In this document: piece by piece, positions 32,523 through 59,297 of the stretch
Numbering within the stretch: position 1 is the first letter of the stretch
Layout: the number at the start of each line of letters is the position of its first letter
From: a virus
IMG/VR virus record: IMGVR_UViG_3300009509_000004
Span: 32,001 to 96,000 of that record
Strand: one strand, 5' to 3'
Length of the DNA: 64,000 nt
Program-made: the position numbers and the translations under genes
Notes under the pieces: generated by a model
Database searches by the model: none
Seen by the model: the letters and a program-made list of their open reading frames with translations, nothing else
Told to the model about the DNA's origin: nothing

Positions 32523-33122
32523 TCAAGCAGCCAGCTTCTGAACTTTGGCCTTGCCGCCAATAGAAAAGCCCTTGAGCTTGGCCTCTTTGACCAATTTCCA
32601 GACCTTGGCGTCAGTCACCTTGACTGTCATGATCCATGCGCCCTCTTTGACTGTGGTGCCATTGATCACAACGTCATGTGGAGCGATCCAAGACTCAAGA
32701 AGCTCAAATTGTTGCTTTCCAAAATACTTGTGCATTAGGCCAAGTTTGGTGGCCTTGTTGTACCTTGCTACGAATTGGTGCGCCGCCTTCCTGATCACCT
32801 CCTTGCTCATGATGTCGCCTTGGGCGTCCACCACTTCTGGCTGGAGCACGACGCCTGTGACAGTCTGCTCATCAGCATTGGCTTTGATCAGGGGCACATA
32901 GATGTTCTTTTGGACTTCAGTTGTCTCCATGTCCTCTGCCTTCTCTTGAGGCTCCAGCTTGACCTTGGGCTGCTTTGGCTTGACGCCGCTGCCGCCTGGT
33001 AGCCCCCTTGCTGGGTGCAATTTGCCGCTGTCGCTCAAGTCTCCAGCATCGATGGTCTTGGCGACAACTTTGTGTTGCCCCTTCTCATCGGCTGGAAAAG
33101 CTCTGCGTGGTAGCCTTGGCAC
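32523..33122 (-). CDS. XkdF-like putative prohead protease
   Basis: EQTVTGVVLQPEVVDAQGD...IRKAAHQF...MH...LESWIAP...GAWIM...KGFSIGG. Confidence 0.85.
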   Translation of the reverse strand: MPRLPRRAFPADEKGQHKVVAKTIDAGDLSDSGKLHPARGLPGGSGVKPKQPKVKLEPQEKAEDMETTEVQKNIYVPLIKANADEQTVTGVVLQPEVVDAQGDIMSKEVIRKAAHQFVARYNKATKLGLMHKYFGKQQFELLESWIAPHDVVINGTTVKEGAWIMTVKVTDAKVWKLVKEAKLKGFSIGGKAKVQKLAA

Positions 33123-33258
33123 ATCTCACCTCGTTTGCGCAATTCAACACAACAAGGTAAGAGTAGATTGGAAGCGCCAAAAAGGAAAGCATCACACAGG
33201 CATGAAACCCGTTATGCTTTCTTGATTTTGTGCAAATGATGTGGGAGAACGGCTGAAA

Positions 33259-33507
33259 CTATACTTCTTCAACCATGATTTTGCTGGAATTTGAAAATGC
33301 GATGGGCAGATTGTCCAAGAACTTTTGGCCGTCCTTGGGGGTGAAAAGACCTTTTGCTGTCACGATCCCGTTGCGCTCCAAGTCATCCTTGAACCACTCG
33401 GTGTCCTTCTGCCAGTCAGCGACCAACTTGCCCCCAGACATATTGAATGTGACTAGGTGCTTGTATTTGCCTGTATCTGGCTTGTATATGGTGACCTTGA
33501 GTGCCAT
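33259..33507 (-). CDS. Small protein downstream of the MuF-kinase; candidate immunity protein or regulator
   Basis: 82 aa, AGGAG RBS, 38 nt after the MuF-kinase stop. Confidence 0.6.
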   Translation of the reverse strand: MALKVTIYKPDTGKYKHLVTFNMSGGKLVADWQKDTEWFKDDLERNGIVTAKGLFTPKDGQKFLDNLPIAFSNSSKIMVEEV

Positions 33508-33545
33508 CTATTATCTCCTATGCGGTTCTGCCCACTTTCGCTGAA

Positions 33546-35648
33546 TCACCCGCCAGTCTTGGCCCCTGGCGTGGAACTGATGAATTGCCCTGCTGATGTG
33601 ATATTCTGCGGAGCAGCCCCTGCATCTTTGTATGCCTCTCCAACGATCTTGATGATTTTCTCTCTGTCTCCTGGCTTGACCAACGTCAACGGTTTGTTGG
33701 TGGCCCTGCTGAAAAACTCCATGACCTTGGATGTGGAGTTGTACTCAGGCATCTTGTCTATGATTTGTGGGTTGATTTGCAGCGCCCTGATTCTGATCAA
33801 CGTTTCCATCGTGGCCTGGCTGGGCACACCCGCTTCCCTGAGCACCTGGGCAACTCTCTCCAACTTCAACTTCCTGATTGCCAACACGCTCGCCCGATCC
33901 AATTTGACCAACGAGTCTGCCAACGTGGATGGCGCATCAGTTGGGAAAATGTACCTTGCAGGCATCCCCTTTGGGAATGTCAGCCCGTTGTCGATTGCGA
34001 TGGCGTTGTATGCCGTCTTGCCGCCCCTCTTCACGGCCTTGAACATGATATTCTGCGTGTGTCTGTCGTCATTGGCCCCGATGACGTCAAGCAAAAACAT
34101 CCTGCGGATGCGCGGATCGTTGTTCAGTTGGCCCGCATAGGCCATGCTCCTGACTGCAGACCCTACATCATCCATGTCCTTTGCCCCTGGAACATAGTGT
34201 TGCAGGCTGCCAATCTTACCAACGCCTGGATCACGAGACACAGTTGGTGGCACAACCATTGTGCCGCCCATCTCCCTGTCGATCTTGTACATGGCAGCTT
34301 CCCTGGCGTGGTATGTCCCAGGCTCGATGCCCCTGCGCAAGCTCATCTCGCTCTCAGCTGTCTTCCAGACAGCCTTCACTTTGGTTTGGTCTGGCGTCTG
34401 TAGGGTTGCCATCTGCGCCCCGTTGACGCCCTTCCCGATCTGCTTTGCGCTGATCATCCTGCTCGTCAGCAAGTTGCGGATGATTTTGTCTTCAGCACTC
34501 TCCTTTTTGACACCAGGCGGCATGATCTCCTTGGGCCTCACTGGCCTGGTGCTCGTTGGGAAGTCCATTGGTTGCAGATCTGAATATGACCCAACCTCAT
34601 CGGACACATCAACTGTACACCTGCACCTGAAGTGATATGGCGGCAAGGAGAATCCAGCAGCGGCAAGCGCCGCTTCATCCTTCCCCTCGACAGCCTTGGC
34701 ACTCCTGGGCCATGGGTGTATTGCCTTGATGTCCTCTGGGCTCTTGGCCATGAACTCCTGCTCAATCTGATTCAACCCCTGCTGCAAGCTGAACGTCTTG
34801 CCTTGCAGCGAGTCACAGACTGCGCAGATCCTTGTGCCACCTGGATTGGTGATGGTGTAGCGCGTGATGCCGACCTCGGCAAAACTCCGCATCTGCCCAT
34901 ACACCCGTCCAACCGTCATCGCATTGGCGACAAGCCCTTCAAAATACTGCTTCTCAGTGCCTATGAATCCTTTGGGCGTGACAACCTTCCCCAACATCGC
35001 CTTGACGCGGTCAGCCATCAGCTGGCCCGCAACGGCTGGACTTTGCCCCGCCTCGATCATCGCCTCGCGTGTTGTGTCGCTGATCGAGTTTGACAGGTTG
35101 GTGTCGTAATGTTCACCAATCCAAAATGTGTTCTTGTCCTTCAGCGCCTGGACAGCCTCTTCATCGACAAGATCAAACGATGGAAGCGCTTGAACCTTTG
35201 CCTTTTTGACAGTTGACGTTGTGCCCTCTGTCTTGGGCACGTTGAACTGGAGCGATGCCATAGACTGCTTGGTGGCCTTCTTGTAGCCTGCCAGCCTGGC
35301 CAGCCTGTACACAGCGACTATTTCTGTGTTGAATGTGGCTGTTACGTCCTTGGCCCACTTGTTCATGACGTTGGCGATTGCGGCTGCAATCTTGTCGGCA
35401 GGCTTCAAGTCCTTTGCCATCTTGACAGCGACCTTGACCGCCTCTGCTTTGCGTGCGTTCCACTTCCCTTCCAGGAAGCTCCGCAAGCGCAACTCAGCCC
35501 GCGCAATCTGCGCAACCTCGCTCAACTTGAGCACTTTCGCAATCGTCAAATCGGATGATGCGCTGTTGATGTATGCCTTGGTCACGCCAATGGATACATA
35601 CTTGCGCTCATGCAGCTTTATGACATTGCTGTGGCAATCATCGCACAT
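33546..35648 (-). CDS. MuF/SPP1 gp7-like minor head protein fused to a C-terminal PI3/PI4-kinase-like domain
   Basis: MuF motifs CAVC...GKTF and PPYHFRCRC. Kinase motifs GKGVNG, AVWK, REAAMYKID, VPPT, GSLQHYV, NDDRHTQN, AIDNGLTFP. Confidence 0.85.
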   Translation of the reverse strand: MCDDCHSNVIKLHERKYVSIGVTKAYINSASSDLTIAKVLKLSEVAQIARAELRLRSFLEGKWNARKAEAVKVAVKMAKDLKPADKIAAAIANVMNKWAKDVTATFNTEIVAVYRLARLAGYKKATKQSMASLQFNVPKTEGTTSTVKKAKVQALPSFDLVDEEAVQALKDKNTFWIGEHYDTNLSNSISDTTREAMIEAGQSPAVAGQLMADRVKAMLGKVVTPKGFIGTEKQYFEGLVANAMTVGRVYGQMRSFAEVGITRYTITNPGGTRICAVCDSLQGKTFSLQQGLNQIEQEFMAKSPEDIKAIHPWPRSAKAVEGKDEAALAAAGFSLPPYHFRCRCTVDVSDEVGSYSDLQPMDFPTSTRPVRPKEIMPPGVKKESAEDKIIRNLLTSRMISAKQIGKGVNGAQMATLQTPDQTKVKAVWKTAESEMSLRRGIEPGTYHAREAAMYKIDREMGGTMVVPPTVSRDPGVGKIGSLQHYVPGAKDMDDVGSAVRSMAYAGQLNNDPRIRRMFLLDVIGANDDRHTQNIMFKAVKRGGKTAYNAIAIDNGLTFPKGMPARYIFPTDAPSTLADSLVKLDRASVLAIRKLKLERVAQVLREAGVPSQATMETLIRIRALQINPQIIDKMPEYNSTSKVMEFFSRATNKPLTLVKPGDREKIIKIVGEAYKDAGAAPQNITSAGQFISSTPGAKTGG

Positions 35649-35657
35649 GTTGCCACC

Positions 35658-37529
35658 TTACATGTCAAGGTCAAAGTCTGTGGTGTCCTCGACCGATCTG
35701 GACTTTTCGACCTCTGTTTGCAGACGCCTCTCCAGCTTCTTGTTGATGCTGAGCAGGTGGTCAACCATGGGATCGCTGCCCAGCCCGCTGACCATCTCGC
35801 TGTTGCCGCACTTGGTGCATTCAGCCTCGATGAGCGTTGGCTCTTCAATATCTGCATCGACATCCCAAAGCCTCTTGAGCGCCGTGAGTTGTTGCCCTGG
35901 CTCAGTCGGTTCTGCTTTGTTCTTGACCGCCTCTGCCATGGTGAGGCTGAACGGCACATCAGATGGGAAGTCTGCTGGGAAGTCTGGAAGCTCTGCTGAC
36001 AAGATGTCTTCAAGCATCACGCGTGCGATGCGTGGCGTCATCCCGCCTGTCTTCTCAGCGCCCGCCAGGATCTTGACCAGCTGCTGATTGTCTGTCGTGT
36101 TGGGGCTGTTGCTCTTGTATTTGTGGTACACAATCCCCATCTCAGGGAACAAGATGCGGTTGATCAGCTCATCAAACTCCTGCCGCTCTGGAGCAAAGAT
36201 CTGCTCATCTGCAAGCACCCGACTGGCCTCAGCCGTTGCCCTGGTGTATTCATCCGTGCGACCGACAAAGATCGGTGGAAGTCTCCAAACCCGCCTCACC
36301 TTGTCCTGGTTGTTCTCGCTGTAATTCTGGAACAACGCATCCTTGTGTTGCTCCTTGACCAATGGTTTGACCTCGACCTTGGCGTGGCTGCCGCTTTCCT
36401 CGCCCTCCATCAAGCCTTCAGCTTCCAGCAACAAAAACTTGCTGTAATTGTCGCTGCCCTGAATCTGGCTCTCCACAAAGCTCTCGATGCGTTGAATTGA
36501 GCCCTCGGTGAGCTGCCCATTGCTGACCAACACGACCATCGATGGAATATTGTTGTTCCTGAAGGTCACATAGTTGATCTCTTCAGCAGCCCTGTCTCCA
36601 AAGATGCTGAGCATGTTGCCGATATATCGGGGCAACCCGTATGGCGTGCGAGCTGAGTACAGCTTCATGTGCACGACCTCGTTTGCCCTGTCTTCTATGG
36701 GCAGCTTGGCGTCTGCGATCTGCCCTGTGCGATTGTCATATATGCGTGTGTCACCAAACTCCTTGAACCACCTGATTTTGTGCCCTCCAACCGTGGATAG
36801 GTTGCGCAGGTACACCGCCTTGCTCTGAACAAACTTCCTGAAGCGCCGCCACTCCTTGATTGTGGCGACCTTGACGCTGCCATCCAGCTGCAACTCCAGG
36901 ATCTTGCGATCTGTGAGAACCTGCGCCTCATCCAGTCGCCCCAACCGCATCTGGTAACTGGGCAAGTGCACAAACGATTGTATTGCCCCAAGGTCATTTC
37001 TGATGACCTCAAAGTAGGCATTGCCTGTGCCTTCCAAGTCCTTGCGCAATTTGCGTCTGAATGCCACAAAGCTCTCTGCTGTGCAGTATTGGAAAAAGTT
37101 GACAAGGCGCACCCGCTCCTTGTTCAGCTTCTTTTCCAATTCAGGCGGCAATTTCTCGCCATCAACCTCTTTTTTCATGCGTGGCACAAAGCGATGGCCA
37201 AACCCCTCGATGTTTGTTTCCATTGCCTCGATGCACTGCTCCATCTCGCTGGAATGCTCTGGGAGCATCGCCAATGTGAGCAGGTCAAATGGTGGCTCGA
37301 TGACCGTGCCCTTCACCGATAGTGAATGGAACGGATCTTGCGGCACAGCCTGAGACTTCCCAGGGGCAGCTCTGGGCAGCTGCTTGGTGATTGGGATGTC
37401 CATTTGTCCGATGACACGCGCCCTGATTGTGTTCATCGCCTTTTGATTGGCATCTGCACCAGCAACATTGGCCGCCTTCTCAATGGAAACGACCTGTGCC
37501 GCTTGTGCCTTCCTGTTATGATTGGCCAT
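35658..37529 (-). CDS. Portal protein (PBSX-like)
   Basis: IEPPFDL...DLEGTGNAYFEVIRN...PYGLPRY...FRNNNIP...WRLPPIFVG; follows the terminase. Confidence 0.92.
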   Translation of the reverse strand: MANHNRKAQAAQVVSIEKAANVAGADANQKAMNTIRARVIGQMDIPITKQLPRAAPGKSQAVPQDPFHSLSVKGTVIEPPFDLLTLAMLPEHSSEMEQCIEAMETNIEGFGHRFVPRMKKEVDGEKLPPELEKKLNKERVRLVNFFQYCTAESFVAFRRKLRKDLEGTGNAYFEVIRNDLGAIQSFVHLPSYQMRLGRLDEAQVLTDRKILELQLDGSVKVATIKEWRRFRKFVQSKAVYLRNLSTVGGHKIRWFKEFGDTRIYDNRTGQIADAKLPIEDRANEVVHMKLYSARTPYGLPRYIGNMLSIFGDRAAEEINYVTFRNNNIPSMVVLVSNGQLTEGSIQRIESFVESQIQGSDNYSKFLLLEAEGLMEGEESGSHAKVEVKPLVKEQHKDALFQNYSENNQDKVRRVWRLPPIFVGRTDEYTRATAEASRVLADEQIFAPERQEFDELINRILFPEMGIVYHKYKSNSPNTTDNQQLVKILAGAEKTGGMTPRIARVMLEDILSAELPDFPADFPSDVPFSLTMAEAVKNKAEPTEPGQQLTALKRLWDVDADIEEPTLIEAECTKCGNSEMVSGLGSDPMVDHLLSINKKLERRLQTEVEKSRSVEDTTDFDLDM

Positions 37530-37543
37530 GCCAGCCTCCTACC

Positions 37544-39016
37544 TCAGATGACGCCTGGCTCACGCCGTCTGCCTCTGCGTTTTTTGAGTTTACTCGCTCT
37601 GTTGGCTAGGTCCAAAGCGTCAAACAAATCCTTGTATCTGAAATTTGGGAACAGCACCAGCTGTTCGACCAATAGATGCATGTTGCCGCCCTTCTTGAAA
37701 AACATCCTCATGTCCTCAAACTGCGGCTCCAGCTTCCATGCCCTTGCGATTTTGTCCTTGTCCTGATTGACAGGCTTCAACCTGATGTCTTTGTCGTATT
37801 CATCTTTCAGGTTCTGATACTGCGCCAGCTGATATGCATTGGTCTCGATGCAGCACCTGATTGGATCCCACTTCTGGTAATACTCAATGATCTTCCTTGT
37901 CTGAGCGCCAAAGCGTAGGTGCCCAGCAAAGAAGTCCAACACATACCTGTTCTTGTCTGTGTCCATCCCAAGGACAACAATGGCCATCTGGTCATTGGTT
38001 TCCTTTTCTGTGATGGCCAAGTCAACGCCCATGAAGATGCGCAGCGCCTTGGGGATGTCCCCAGCCTCGATCATCTGGCATTGATCATATTGGAAAATTT
38101 CACCCTTCATCGCCTCTGTATCACATTGATACTGTGCGTTGAAGATGATGATGCCTGACTTGCGCTTTTTCTCCATGAACCATTTGGGTGGATACTTCTC
38201 TGGCCATGGGCTGCGCCCGTCTGCGTCCAACGCTGCGATGATATTGTGGTGGTGCTTCAGCTCGTTGTCGATGAGGTGCCCATACAGGTCATCATAGTGA
38301 TACCTTGTGCCCAGCCTGTGGTGCTCCCCTCTGTGCTCAACGCTTGGGTCTGGCGGTTCCAAAGTTGGGTCAAGTGATTGGTAGTACCATGTCCTGGTCT
38401 TGTCGCGCATGTACTTTGTGCGCGTGTTCTCTTCATCGCACAGGTCATCGCTGATGATGACGTCATAGTGCTTGCCAACGACCTGCGCCCCAACACCCAG
38501 CGTTGTGACAGACGCCTCCTTGGCCCTTGTCGTGCGGGGCAGCACCTCGATCTCGCTGTTGTCCCACTTCCTGACTGCTCTTGGGTCATAATATGGCCCA
38601 AATATCTCAATGAGCTTGTCGTTGCTCTCGAAATGCGCCTTGATTTCTTTCAAGAATGCCTCTGCCTGCCCTGACGTCTTTGAGGTGATCAGGATGCGCA
38701 GGTTGGGATTCTTGAGCAATAGGTGGATGACTTTGGCAACTGTGCAAACCGTGGACTTTCCAGCCCCTCGGAATGCCAATTGCAGGTTGTCTGGGTGCCT
38801 GAATTGATATGCCATCATCGCCAGATGGAATGGCTCCACCTGGTATCCCAGCACGTAGGTGGCCAAGATGTCTATGCGATTGTTGACAATGATTTGGCGC
38901 TTCAACCACTCATTGCCCATGGCCTTGTAGTGGTCAAGCGTTTGGACAAGCTCGCTGCGCTCTGAGTCCTCAATCCTTCTTGTTATCGGTATGACCGCAG
39001 CACCTGGCATGCTCAA
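37544..39016 (-). CDS. terL: Terminase large subunit
   Basis: Walker A FRGAGKST, GKHYDVIISDD Walker B, GTRYHYDDLY, nuclease GVDLA and KDLFDAL. Confidence 0.95.
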   Translation of the reverse strand: MSMPGAAVIPITRRIEDSERSELVQTLDHYKAMGNEWLKRQIIVNNRIDILATYVLGYQVEPFHLAMMAYQFRHPDNLQLAFRGAGKSTVCTVAKVIHLLLKNPNLRILITSKTSGQAEAFLKEIKAHFESNDKLIEIFGPYYDPRAVRKWDNSEIEVLPRTTRAKEASVTTLGVGAQVVGKHYDVIISDDLCDEENTRTKYMRDKTRTWYYQSLDPTLEPPDPSVEHRGEHHRLGTRYHYDDLYGHLIDNELKHHHNIIAALDADGRSPWPEKYPPKWFMEKKRKSGIIIFNAQYQCDTEAMKGEIFQYDQCQMIEAGDIPKALRIFMGVDLAITEKETNDQMAIVVLGMDTDKNRYVLDFFAGHLRFGAQTRKIIEYYQKWDPIRCCIETNAYQLAQYQNLKDEYDKDIRLKPVNQDKDKIARAWKLEPQFEDMRMFFKKGGNMHLLVEQLVLFPNFRYKDLFDALDLANRASKLKKRRGRRREPGVI

Positions 39017-43927: not shown

Positions 43928-44845
43928 TTACATGTCATCCATATCTCTGAAGCCCAACCAAATAGGGATGCGTGGAAGATCCTTGACCCCTTGCGGTTGG
44001 TACTTGTACTTCACAATCTTGCCAAGGTATTTGCTCTGGTTCTCCCAAATCTCCTTGCGCATTTCCTTGGTCATCCCCTTGGCGCTGCCGATCCTGAACT
44101 CCCTGCCTTCAAAAAGGCCATGGATGTCCTTGACGATGAATTTGCCCAGATGCCCGTTTGGAACCTTGCCCGCCTTTGCTGACGACCTCTTGGCATGACC
44201 AAGCTCGTCAACCCCAAGCTCGTTGTTGTTGGTCATCTGCTCTTCAAATCCGATGACCTCTGCCTCTGAATCCAAGAATATCTTGAGCTTGAGCATGAAT
44301 CGCTCATTCCACGTGGAACGCCCGCACTTGTATGGGCTGTCTGGGGTGCGCATGATCAGCCCCTCAAACCCCTCATCCAAGCACTGTTTCTCATATGCCC
44401 TCAGCTCTTCAACCGACTCGATGACCTTGAACGGCAGCATCTTGATGTACTGCTTTGCCTCATCGGTGACGTGGTGCTTCATGAGCTGGACAAGCGCCTT
44501 CAGCCTGTCTGTGTACGGCACACTGGTGTCGCCTCCAGGCACGTAATCAAACAGCCGCAATGTGAATTCTGGCTCGCCGTCCTGAGACATGATGGCTGAT
44601 GTGCACTTCTGAAAGCTGTCGCCCGCAAACAATTCACCATCCATGAACTGAATCATGTGCCGTTCCAGCGTCGTGCGGATGTGGTCATTTTTGATTGGCT
44701 TGAACGACCTGCTGAGCACTCGACCGTCTGGGTTGATGCACCTGATGCCATCGACCTTGGGCGAAGCAATCATTGGAAATTCCAGCGCGTTGACGTCATC
44801 GTCTTCAAGGAATCTGTCACACGCCAGCATTGGCTTCTTGATCAT
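43928..44845 (-). CDS. ATP-dependent DNA ligase
   Basis: KPMLA, KVDGIR (motif I), DGEL, FD, EGLIMR, YKCGRS...LKLK and PRIPIWLGFR. Confidence 0.95.
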   Translation of the reverse strand: MIKKPMLACDRFLEDDDVNALEFPMIASPKVDGIRCINPDGRVLSRSFKPIKNDHIRTTLERHMIQFMDGELFAGDSFQKCTSAIMSQDGEPEFTLRLFDYVPGGDTSVPYTDRLKALVQLMKHHVTDEAKQYIKMLPFKVIESVEELRAYEKQCLDEGFEGLIMRTPDSPYKCGRSTWNERFMLKLKIFLDSEAEVIGFEEQMTNNNELGVDELGHAKRSSAKAGKVPNGHLGKFIVKDIHGLFEGREFRIGSAKGMTKEMRKEIWENQSKYLGKIVKYKYQPQGVKDLPRIPIWLGFRDMDDM

Positions 44846-44967
44846 CCGCTGATTCTCCCGATGTAAACGCACAGCACGGTGTATGCGATGAAAGCGCAAG
44901 GGATGATGAGCGCCATGAGCGCCTGCCTGAGCGCATACTTCAGAAACGTCTTTGGATCAATCCACAT
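44842..44967 (-). CDS. Small membrane peptide
   Basis: MWIDPKTFLKYALRQALMALIIPCAFIAYTVLCVYIGRISG; overlaps the ligase start. Confidence 0.4.
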   Translation of the reverse strand: MWIDPKTFLKYALRQALMALIIPCAFIAYTVLCVYIGRISG

Positions 44968-57980: not shown

Positions 57981-58055
57981 ACAATTATAGTTGGCTTGCT
58001 TCCAGAAGTCAAGAAAAAAACGACCTTGGAGGCAACTTTTTTTGTCTCCACGTCC
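57981..58055 (-). promoter_or_regulatory. Repeat terminator-promoter copy 2
   Basis: TTGACT-tctggaagcaagccaac-TATAAT. Confidence 0.9.
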
Positions 58056-58453
58056 TACAACTTGGTGTAGCCCTTTTTCTGCTTGGCCTTCACCAGATCG
58101 GCAAACACGTGTTCTGCCTTGCCTTGGGATGGATACTTGCCCTTGATCTGCCTCTGGAGAGAATGCGTGCGCCGCCCCCACTCGATTGTCACCTGGAAGT
58201 CGCCATCTGCAAGCCTGTCCAAGTGGACGTTGTACACCTTGTCCGATGTCCCTTGGCGATAGGCCAAGTTGGTCGTCACGATCCTGGCTGCCTCTGTCGC
58301 CCCGTGTGCGTTCTTTGTGTCCAGCGCGTCTGCTATGACGTCTGGTATGGCCTTGGCCTCTGCCGCTTCCCTCCGCACATCCTCGACACTTTTCAGCACG
58401 CCCTGCCCAAAAGTGCCCTCCCTCATCGCCTTTCTGATTTGTTCGAGATCCAT
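58055..58453 (-). CDS. WGR-domain protein
   Basis: GTSDKVYNVHL...VTIEWGRR...F..LVKAKQKKGY; the true start is MDLEQ inside the 404-aa ORF. Confidence 0.85.
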   Translation of the reverse strand: MDLEQIRKAMREGTFGQGVLKSVEDVRREAAEAKAIPDVIADALDTKNAHGATEAARIVTTNLAYRQGTSDKVYNVHLDRLADGDFQVTIEWGRRTHSLQRQIKGKYPSQGKAEHVFADLVKAKQKKGYTKL

Positions 58454-58463
58454 GATCCACCTC

Positions 58464-59297
58464 TCAATCGAAGCAACCCGTGTTTCGCCAGTACACCTTG
58501 AGGTCTGGGTCGAAATACACGGTGTTGTCCGGTGACTCGTATGTTTGCCCCTTCTTGGCCCCTTCCCGCTCAAACGCCACCACGTAGGAATTGACGATGA
58601 ACTCGCCGTTGCTGAATCGCAGCTGCGTCCAGCCCTTGTCGCAGAGCGCTTCCAGCGCGTTGTCGCTGATGGAGCACGGCAATTTGCGCTCTGGCTGCCT
58701 GACCTTGAGGATGTGATCGGGGTGGATCCAACGGACATCGCTTGGGCCTCTGAACCGTTTGCCCATCGCTGCCCCCATCGCCTTGAGCATCGCCAGATCC
58801 GACTCGATGCCCCTGAGATTGCGCTCGATGCCGACCTTGCCCGACTGGAAGTTGACTTTTGCCACCCGCTCCCACTTGCTGCCGTCCCTGTAATTGACCA
58901 ACACCTCGTCACCGATGCTGATTTTTGTGCCGCTGGGTGCGTTGCGCCAAAATTGTGACCCGTTGTAATCCAGATCGCCGATTGCCGCCCTGCCTCGCTC
59001 TGCCCGCGCCTGCTTCCGTTCTTGGACTTCCTGCTGCGTGCCTTCCATCTGTCCCAACGCCTCGTTGAGCTGCTCCTGGGTGTATGTGCCCTTGGGCAGC
59101 CCCAAAAGCGCCTCGCCCTTGACCGTCCAAGCGTAGGTTTTGCCTGTGCGCTCGATGGGCGCAAGCGTGTACTCTCGCTTGCCTGCGTATTTGCCCCGCC
59201 TGATGTACCTGGCGCTTTGGATGACGCAATCGATCCTTTTGCCTTTCGACATGATGCTGACCGCGTCACCTACCTTGAGTGCTTTGAGATCTGTCAT
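58464..59297 (-). CDS. Early protein with tandem SH3/KOW-like beta barrels
   Basis: LKVGDAVSI and ISIGDEVLVNY segments; AGGAGAACGG RBS. Confidence 0.65.
   Translation of the reverse strand: MTDLKALKVGDAVSIMSKGKRIDCVIQSARYIRRGKYAGKREYTLAPIERTGKTYAWTVKGEALLGLPKGTYTQEQLNEALGQMEGTQQEVQERKQARAERGRAAIGDLDYNGSQFWRNAPSGTKISIGDEVLVNYRDGSKWERVAKVNFQSGKVGIERNLRGIESDLAMLKAMGAAMGKRFRGPSDVRWIHPDHILKVRQPERKLPCSISDNALEALCDKGWTQLRFSNGEFIVNSYVVAFEREGAKKGQTYESPDNTVYFDPDLKVYWRNTGCFD

Follow-up and report, generated by a model that had tools for sequence, protein, structure and literature searches.

A predicted type II PI4-kinase-like domain on a MuF minor head protein of an uncultured virus, and its probably HipS-like partner

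Introduction

Fusion of a toxin to MuF is a known way for phages to carry enzymes, though one that has hardly been studied. The Apk2 alarmone synthetases and the ADP-ribosyltransferase Bxa are the only characterized examples (PMC11699363); adjacent small proteins neutralize them by blocking their active sites (PMC12226406, PMC11699363), and such toxins have been defined in temperate phages and prophages (PMC5576092, PMC12226406). The subject of the present analysis is a gene for a 700-residue protein that joins a MuF domain to a C-terminal kinase-like domain, together with the gene for an 82-residue protein that follows it. Both lie in a stretch of 64,000 nucleotides (hereafter the window), bases 32001-96000 of the complete 106,758-bp IMG/VR virus record IMGVR_UViG_3300009509_000004, which has direct terminal repeats.

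In Zhang et al. (2012) MuF appears as a delivery module, and a lantibiotic-synthetase-type kinase toxin is given only for PVC (Photorhabdus virulence cassette) systems; a kinase resembling phosphatidylinositol 4-kinase (PI4K) is not among the MuF-delivered domains found there (PMC3482391). Jamet et al. (2017; PMC5576092) nowhere mention a "kinase" in their main text. Iyer et al. (2017) described two cases, a zeta-toxin-like P-loop kinase attached to MuF and, among polyvalent proteins, a truncated protein kinase, with injection proposed for polyvalent proteins and MuF fusions (PMC5512222). The fusion considered here did not come up in literature searches that combined MuF with kinase, HipA, PI4K-like or SCO1664; the only finds, the P-loop kinase fusion just mentioned and the Apk2 pyrophosphokinase (PMC12226406), both have other folds. 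A further point of reference is the HipBST system, where HipS neutralizes HipT by means of a residue inserted at the Gly-rich loop (PMC10627512).

A type II PI4-kinase-like domain

The features of the locus, all on the minus strand, are the following (pLDDT, predicted local distance difference test score).

33546..35648 (-): MuF-kinase fusion gene, 700 residues, stop codon TGA at 33546-33548 (open reading frame list)
34605..35648 (-): residues 1-348, MuF or SPP1 gp7-type minor head (head morphogenesis) domain (TIGR01641, PHROG, position)
34497..34604 (-): residues 349-384, Pro-rich linker, poorly conserved
33624..34496 (-): residues 385-675, predicted type II PI4K-like, protein-kinase-like domain (PF00454, AlphaFold2, VIA, Foldseek)
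33549..33623 (-): residues 676-700, C-terminal tail (pLDDT 63-46 in the last three blocks)
33259..33507 (-): 82-residue, probably HipS-like partner, candidate inhibitor or immunity gene (co-occurrence, predicted complex, fold)

As modeled, the C-terminal domain has a kinase fold nearest to that of the type II PI4Ks (PI4KII), with HipA and HipT as more distant relatives. The AlphaFold2 model, built from a 29-row alignment, has a pLDDT of 91.8 and a predicted template modeling score (pTM) of 0.89. Its best Foldseek matches are to PI4KII alpha (4hne_B, E 3.7e-8), and in VIA-align nine PI4KII alpha and beta entries scored Z 20.8-19.4 over about 248 residues, with a root-mean-square deviation (rmsd) of 3.5-3.9 and 21-22% identity, the top match being PI4KII beta (9hhm_B: Z 20.8, rmsd 3.6 A, 248 residues, 21% identity). 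The next families come after a clear gap: Fam20 (14.8), CtkA (14.1), HipT (12.0) and HipA (about 11). Profile searches agree in direction, PF00454 (PI3_PI4_kinase) being matched at E 2.5e-6 with 28.0 bits against a cut-off of 27.1.

Two other family assignments were tried and rejected. TIGR03843, the actinobacterial SCO1664 family, was matched at E 2.4e-12, with 46.8 bits against an equivalog cut-off of 172.4, and is a related family only. Membership in the HipA_C family fails on two counts: there was no PF07804 match at E<=0.1, and HipT and HipA (Z 10.5-12) rank structurally well under PI4KII.

The domain carries a full series of kinase motifs, beginning with the Gly-rich loop GKGVNG (residues 405-410) and AVWK (426-429), which holds the ATP-binding lysine K429, and continuing with REAAMYKID (449-457), which includes the alphaC glutamate E450, VPPT (466-469), KIGSLQHYV (478-486), NDDRHTQN (526-533), which contains the catalytic loop D528-R-H-T-Q-N533, and AIDNGLTFP (551-559), where I-D553-N-G is the equivalent of DFG. 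In alignments of 29 and 84 relatives (A2 and A6) there is little or no variation at K429, E450, D528, R529, N533, D553 and G555. The C-terminal tail (residues 676-700) is shared, in the former alignment, with the closest relative only.

An earlier note on this DNA, made by a model from the sequence and its open reading frames (ORFs), had placed the fusion gene after the portal gene and the 82-residue gene 38 nt later, and the ORF coordinates agree. The nine motifs that it quoted, two of them in the MuF half, are all present between residues 275 and 559, and those of the kinase span nt 33972-34436, inside the interval of about 34470-33760 that it had given for the domain. It had assigned them to a type II PI4K/HipA-like superfamily, an assignment that the fold comparison both upholds and sharpens, with type II PI4K nearest and HipA and HipT farther away.

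Searched against 1.84 billion cluster representatives, residues 385-700 match 695 relatives at E<=1e-3, of which 148 reach E<=1e-10. DRHxxN and xDNG are both kept in 141 of 154 kinase-family representatives, and in 140 of the 154 the domain ends no more than 60 residues from the protein C-terminus. Of 84 representatives that were scanned for other domains, 64 matched PF00454 (E<=1e-3) and 31 Phage_Mu_F (PF04233); a pretoxin-HINT domain (PT-HINT) and a Mu-type portal domain (Portal_Mu) were each found in one.

Likeness to PI4KII in fold need not extend to substrate. The membrane anchor of PI4KII alpha is a palmitoylated CCPCC motif; residues 385-700 of the phage protein include no cysteines, and this palmitoylation motif is therefore absent. 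Phosphatidylinositol is itself absent from most bacteria, so that the substrate is probably different from that of PI4KII, and a protein is the more likely target.

The MuF half of the fusion protein

The fusion gene is present in a single copy in the genome, and its product has full-length homologues (P0002-P0016 and P0025). The assignment of the N-terminal half to MuF is sound from sequence comparison and context, as four lines of evidence coincide. TIGR01641 (SPP1 gp7) matches the fusion protein at E 2.8e-7, with 30.9 bits, under its cut-off of 39.65; the minor-head and head-morphogenesis families PHROG 595, 2841, 4728, 115 and 9907 match residues 185-348 at 1e-5 to 1e-6; PF04233, weak on the fusion protein itself (E 0.036), passes in homologues at 40-55% identity; and the gene stands right after that for the portal. 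The MuF cysteine motifs are CAVC (residues 275-278) and PPYHFRCRC (336-344), the latter closing the domain. A phmmer search with the whole fusion protein against PDB sequences returned nothing relevant. In alignment A1 the linker that follows varies in length, and relatives insert whole extra domains there.

One related MuF protein (P0026, 906 residues; L050/L051) is broken by an insertion of the Hint/homing-endonuclease type (precomputed PF05203). This is probably an intein within the MuF domain, whose cysteine motif is delayed to residue ~892.

A partner gene that accompanies the kinase

The 82-residue gene begins 38 nt after the fusion gene, with AGGAG at 33515-33519, 8 nt ahead of its ATG. 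Its product has no Pfam, PHROG or NCBIfam match, and its database relatives are all annotated "hypothetical protein"; their alignment (A5) has a conserved P-x-D-G and a Ser/Thr-rich C-terminal tail.

Its distribution is that of the kinase. In a tblastn search of 80 related IMG/VR MuF loci, the protein was matched only in kinase-bearing loci and always just downstream, and a hidden Markov model (HMM) built from ten close members recovered more divergent partners. These stand right behind MuF-kinase genes that are themselves more distant (L083, L092-96, L099), mostly overlapping them by 4 nt; the copy in L097 was recognized by position and motif and added to the profile afterwards. Taken together, the partner is immediately 3' of the kinase gene in L002, L003, L005, L008/9, L021, L022, L033, L049, L083, L092-96 and L099, often overlapping it by 4 nt (ATGA). 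By tblastn and HMM alike, it is absent from all of the ~55 MuF loci that have no kinase.

In L004/L028 the partner forms the C-terminal end of an adjoining 160-residue ORF, at a distance of ~220 nt downstream, and in two loci (L098, 4843-5097, minus strand; L103, 4986-5246, minus strand) it is inverted and convergent, overlapping the 3' end of the kinase gene. The ~74 extra residues that precede the partner domain in the L004 ORF could be a second partner. The kinases of L103 and L104, on contigs of 230 kb and 619 kb, are non-MuF proteins of 468-595 residues.

One lineage (L018/L019, 4944-6857; P0014-P0016), in phages of roughly 45-104 kb, has a degenerate kinase in which DDRH has become an SSR-type sequence and IDNG is degraded; it has no partner gene, with only about 155 bp between kinase and protease. 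In the gammaproteobacterial metagenome-assembled genome (MAG) CAZRGC010000001.1, a stand-alone kinase of 256 residues (L116, 4803-5831) is followed 6 nt later by an 83-residue homologue of the partner. This pair is not part of a phage head module and has the look of a toxin-antitoxin-like cassette of two genes.

Fold of the partner and its predicted complex with the kinase

Modeled alone with AlphaFold2, the partner has a pLDDT of 92.9. A search of 48,161 PDB representatives that was independent of Foldseek gave HipS of E. coli and of Legionella as its two best chains (7ab3_B: Z 4.5, rmsd 3.2, 66 residues aligned; 7vkb_B: Z 4.0), with the HipA N-subdomain at ranks 4-5, and clusters of Couple_hipA (PF13657) are among the nearest structural neighbors of its ESM Atlas model, at a template modeling (TM) score of about 0.5. 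Foldseek found nothing in the PDB at E<=0.001, and a profile of the partner run against PDB sequences returned nanobody noise only. From the models, a HipS-like fold is probable.

When the kinase domain was modeled together with the partner, the interface score ipSAE was 0.92, 0.91 and 0.92 in three runs, versus 0.00 for the best of three controls, with a contact agreement of at least 95% between runs and a partner pLDDT of at least 92. Among solved complexes 58 of 80 attained this mark, against 2 of 110 mismatched pairs, a calibration that is only rough for the present case, as the prediction used custom alignments.

On the kinase side the predicted interface consists of domain residues 20-27 (the Gly-rich loop), 45, 143-149 and 168-172, where 45 corresponds to K429, 143-149 to D527-N533 and 169 to D553, the aspartate of IDNG. 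On the partner side it is made up mainly of the conserved C-terminal tail (residues 68-81), with N73, S74, S75 and K76 placed against K429, D553 and N533. In the model the tail would look like a plug of the ATP site, or a pseudosubstrate.

Exchange of domains on related MuF backbones

At 54-61% identity, the MuF backbones nearest to that of the window have no extension: they are about 355 residues long, and the protease gene comes directly after them. Other backbones carry extensions of 212-623 residues, each followed by its own unrelated ORF of 41-98 residues; of ten such extensions four are ADP-ribosyltransferases (ARTs) and one is ATLF-like, and others are unknown domains. Two arrangements combine effectors on one MuF protein, in the order kinase-ART in L004/L028 (4953-7769; 938 residues) and ART-kinase in L033 (5034-7709; 891 residues).

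A tree of the MuF domains points the same way. Its well-supported branches force at least four changes of the kinase label, and parsimony needs seven; the window and L002 together are sister to ten bare MuFs (99*), and the kinase-bearing L021 is sister to L043, which has another domain. MuF proteins thus occur bare, with ARTs or with other extensions, each with its own small gene, and the kinase and its partner are therefore a polymorphic effector cassette.

The computational checks that the earlier note had suggested for the pair all speak for it, and its proposal of a virion-delivered protein or lipid kinase with a cognate inhibitor is supported to the extent that computation allows. Variable C-terminal domains with small downstream genes, which it had described for some MuF proteins, were found among the relatives of this MuF backbone; the modeling of the complex that it had called for places the 82-residue protein over the active site; and the search for co-occurrence in related phages finds the small gene strictly with the kinase. 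It had known of no characterized MuF-kinase pair, in agreement with the literature searches described above. Two refinements can be added: the small protein is probably HipS-like, the pair resembling a split HipT/HipS kinase-antitoxin system, and the phage has neither integrase nor resolvase.

Head-gene order and phage lifestyle

Other identified genes of the region are listed below.

37544-39016 (-): large terminase (TerL)
35658-37529 (-): portal (PF04860, E 4.9e-15)
32523-33122 (-): XkdF-type prohead protease (PF14550, E 7e-32)
43928-44899 (-): ATP-dependent DNA ligase, 323 residues

The order along the minus strand is terminase, portal, 700-residue gene, 82-residue partner, protease, scaffold-like gene and putative major capsid gene. 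The 136-nt gap between partner and protease holds a bulged hairpin followed by CCUUUUUGG (33178-33221, minus strand; folding free energy -21.9, z -1.85). It is possibly a weak terminator, which would split terminase, portal, MuF and partner genes from protease, scaffold and capsid genes; a simple terminator scan did not pick it out, and the z-score of the fold is only -1.85. Elsewhere in the window, a 404-residue protein (58055-59269, minus strand) has a WGR domain at its end (PF05406, E 7.7e-6), and most of the other large ORFs tested have no Pfam match.

The phage looks like a virulent, uncultured, long-tailed one. Its genome encodes a tape-measure-type protein of 1208 residues, and neither a tyrosine integrase (PF00589) nor a serine recombinase (PF00239) was matched anywhere in the complete genome with its direct terminal repeats. 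Among 185,579 prokaryotic species, represented by one genome each, there is no close copy, and only distant stand-alone kinases in MAGs were seen. The 50,697 deposited phage genomes include no kinase-bearing cultured relative by tblastn, the only matches being weak ones to the MuF part in four Vibrio and Aeromonas phages. The relatives are viral contigs of about 45-110 kb.

Possible roles of the kinase and its partner

Computation provides the kinase fold, its intact motifs, the co-occurrence with the partner, the behavior as a cassette and the predicted interface; the packaging, ejection, activity, inhibition and target proposed here are inferred. The explanation that we favor, with moderate confidence, is that a MuF minor head protein carries an active kinase as cargo, that a HipS-like partner inhibits this kinase, and that the two genes form a mobile cassette. 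If the protein behaves like SPP1 gp7, Mu F and the toxins fused to MuF, its MuF half would fix a small number of copies at the portal on the inner side of the procapsid. On infection the kinase would exit together with the DNA and, once in the new cell, phosphorylate a target there. In the phage-producing cell it would be kept off by the partner, which would bind over the catalytic cleft with its Ser/Thr-rich tail flanked by the Gly-rich loop, the catalytic loop, the lysine that binds ATP and the aspartate of IDNG. Kinase and partner are swapped, gained and lost on related MuF backbones in the manner of polymorphic toxin/immunity pairs.

Several points weigh against this explanation. The PF00454 score is barely over the Pfam cut-off, and the likeness of the partner to HipS is weak (Z 4.5, TM about 0.5) and comes without sequence or Foldseek support. 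The complex is a model, whose success may be explained in part by solved HipS-HipT complexes (about 12% identity), and the equivalent N-subdomain in HipA belongs to an active enzyme, not to an inhibitor. As to co-occurrence, the loss of the partner beside the dead kinase is a single evolutionary event, an intact MuF-kinase (L106) has an unrecognized 79-residue ORF at the partner position, the match in L100 is weak (E 0.019), and the L097 partner was picked by eye before it joined the profile. Finally, it is not obvious why an apparently virulent phage would silence an effector that is made late.

Some of the same observations can be turned toward a different arrangement, to which we would assign a minor but real share of the probability: a two-part enzyme, in which the 82-residue protein is a HipA-N-subdomain-like subunit, activator or substrate, the enzyme acts before release, within the procapsid or the cell that makes the phage (phosphorylation of phage or host proteins as the particle is assembled would be an example), and MuF serves only to localize the kinase. 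The idea of a required subunit stays alive because the HipS-like subdomain is integral to HipA: in full-length HipA, N-subdomain 1, one of the structural neighbors of the partner, belongs to an active kinase (PMC10627512). The conserved S74 and S75 of the partner are modeled beside K429 and D553, as for a substrate or pseudosubstrate, and strict co-occurrence, with co-loss when the catalytic residues go, would suit a cofactor equally. However, the modeled tail sits at residues that bind ATP phosphates (Gly-rich loop, K429, N533, D553), where competition with nucleotide would be expected and not completion of the site; none of the loci seen has partner and kinase in one protein, and two have the partner gene inverted; and the layout is that of other MuF domains with small genes, for which the partners that have been tested are inhibitors (PMC11699363, PMC12226406).

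If the partner is an inhibitor, as in the favored explanation, the pair could still be a classical MuF polymorphic toxin of a temperate phage, one that helps a lysogen against competitors lacking the immunity gene rather than an effector for takeover at infection. Both the architecture and the toxin/immunity layout are as in prophage MuF toxins (PMC5576092, PMC11699363), and the pretoxin-HINT domain of one family member is typical of secreted polymorphic toxins. We nevertheless find this improbable: the complete 106.8-kb genome has direct terminal repeats and neither tyrosine integrase nor serine recombinase, and there is no close relative in the genomes of 185,579 species, the relatives being on viral contigs of ~45-110 kb. 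With no integrase or resolvase, the phage is a poor fit to the temperate setting of the described MuF toxins. That the domain is instead an inert or structural pseudokinase inside the capsid, with the small gene an unrelated head-assembly accessory, is very improbable: the P0014-16 (L018/19) lineage, which keeps the domain with DDRH and IDNG destroyed, suggests that a non-catalytic role is tolerated, but the catalytic residues are invariant in the lineage of the window and kept in 141 of 154 representatives, and the small gene tracks the kinase, including the stand-alone kinase of L116, and not the head module.

Returning to the kinase as inhibited cargo, a broader and distinctly more tentative proposal is that it belongs to a large family of virion-delivered kinases: large, apparently virulent phages might load a type II PI4K-like kinase into the capsid on the MuF protein and fire it, until then plugged by its HipS-like partner, into the host, where it would hit a central protein and stop translation or defense, as Hip kinases do via aminoacyl-tRNA synthetases, and the pair might link HipT/HipS with the ancestry of the eukaryotic type II PI4Ks.

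The locus adds to the known MuF cargoes a protein-kinase-like one that, with its 695 cluster representatives (E<=1e-3), is common in metagenomes. Its dedicated partner is predicted to bind in a way that suggests a directly testable mechanism of inhibition. Delivery at infection, if it occurs, would make the kinase a new class of pre-made host-takeover or anti-defense enzyme. The pair could also serve as a kinase/inhibitor tool, and could give both the type II PI4K fold and the HipT/HipS split a relative among prokaryotes.

Comparison with known systems

Over the whole domain (248-254 residues, 21-22% identity) no structures match better than those of the eukaryotic kinases PI4K2A and PI4K2B (4hne, 4pla, 9hhm, 4wtv), and the catalytic-loop and xIDNGxxFP motifs are common to both. 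The phage domain differs in its size of about 290 residues, without the eukaryotic inserts and without a Cys-rich anchor. Among phage kinases, gp0.7 of T7 is made after entry and is not packaged. The present kinase is phage-encoded, as are gp0.7 and the truncated kinases of polyvalent proteins (PMC5512222), for which early modification of host proteins has been proposed or shown, but it is of another family than these.

The MuF toxins (PMC3482391, PMC5576092; Apk2, PMC12226406; Bxa, PMC11699363) share with this locus an N-terminal MuF domain, a position beside the portal gene, variable C-terminal enzymes, and a small downstream gene that co-varies with the C-terminal domain and whose product is predicted to cover the active site. 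Unlike theirs, the cargo here is a type II PI4K-like kinase, and its carrier is an apparently non-temperate, uncultured virus of 107 kb, not a prophage.

HipBST (PMC10627512, PMC9325769, PMC6581861) likewise pairs a kinase, which in broad terms falls into the fold class of the phage domain (Z 11-12), with a separate protein of ~80-100 residues; in both systems this protein sits, by solved structure or by prediction, on the Gly-rich loop and active site, and the modeled fold of the phage partner has its nearest, though low-scoring, neighbors in HipS and HipA N-subdomain 1. The kinase core of the phage protein is nearer to PI4KII (Z 20.8), has no PF07804 match and is fused to a virion protein. 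Its partner gene comes after the kinase, whereas hipS precedes hipT, and the neighbors are portal and protease genes, with no HipB-like helix-turn-helix gene. The predicted inhibitory element differs as well: HipS uses a Trp, and the phage partner would use its Ser-rich C-terminal tail.

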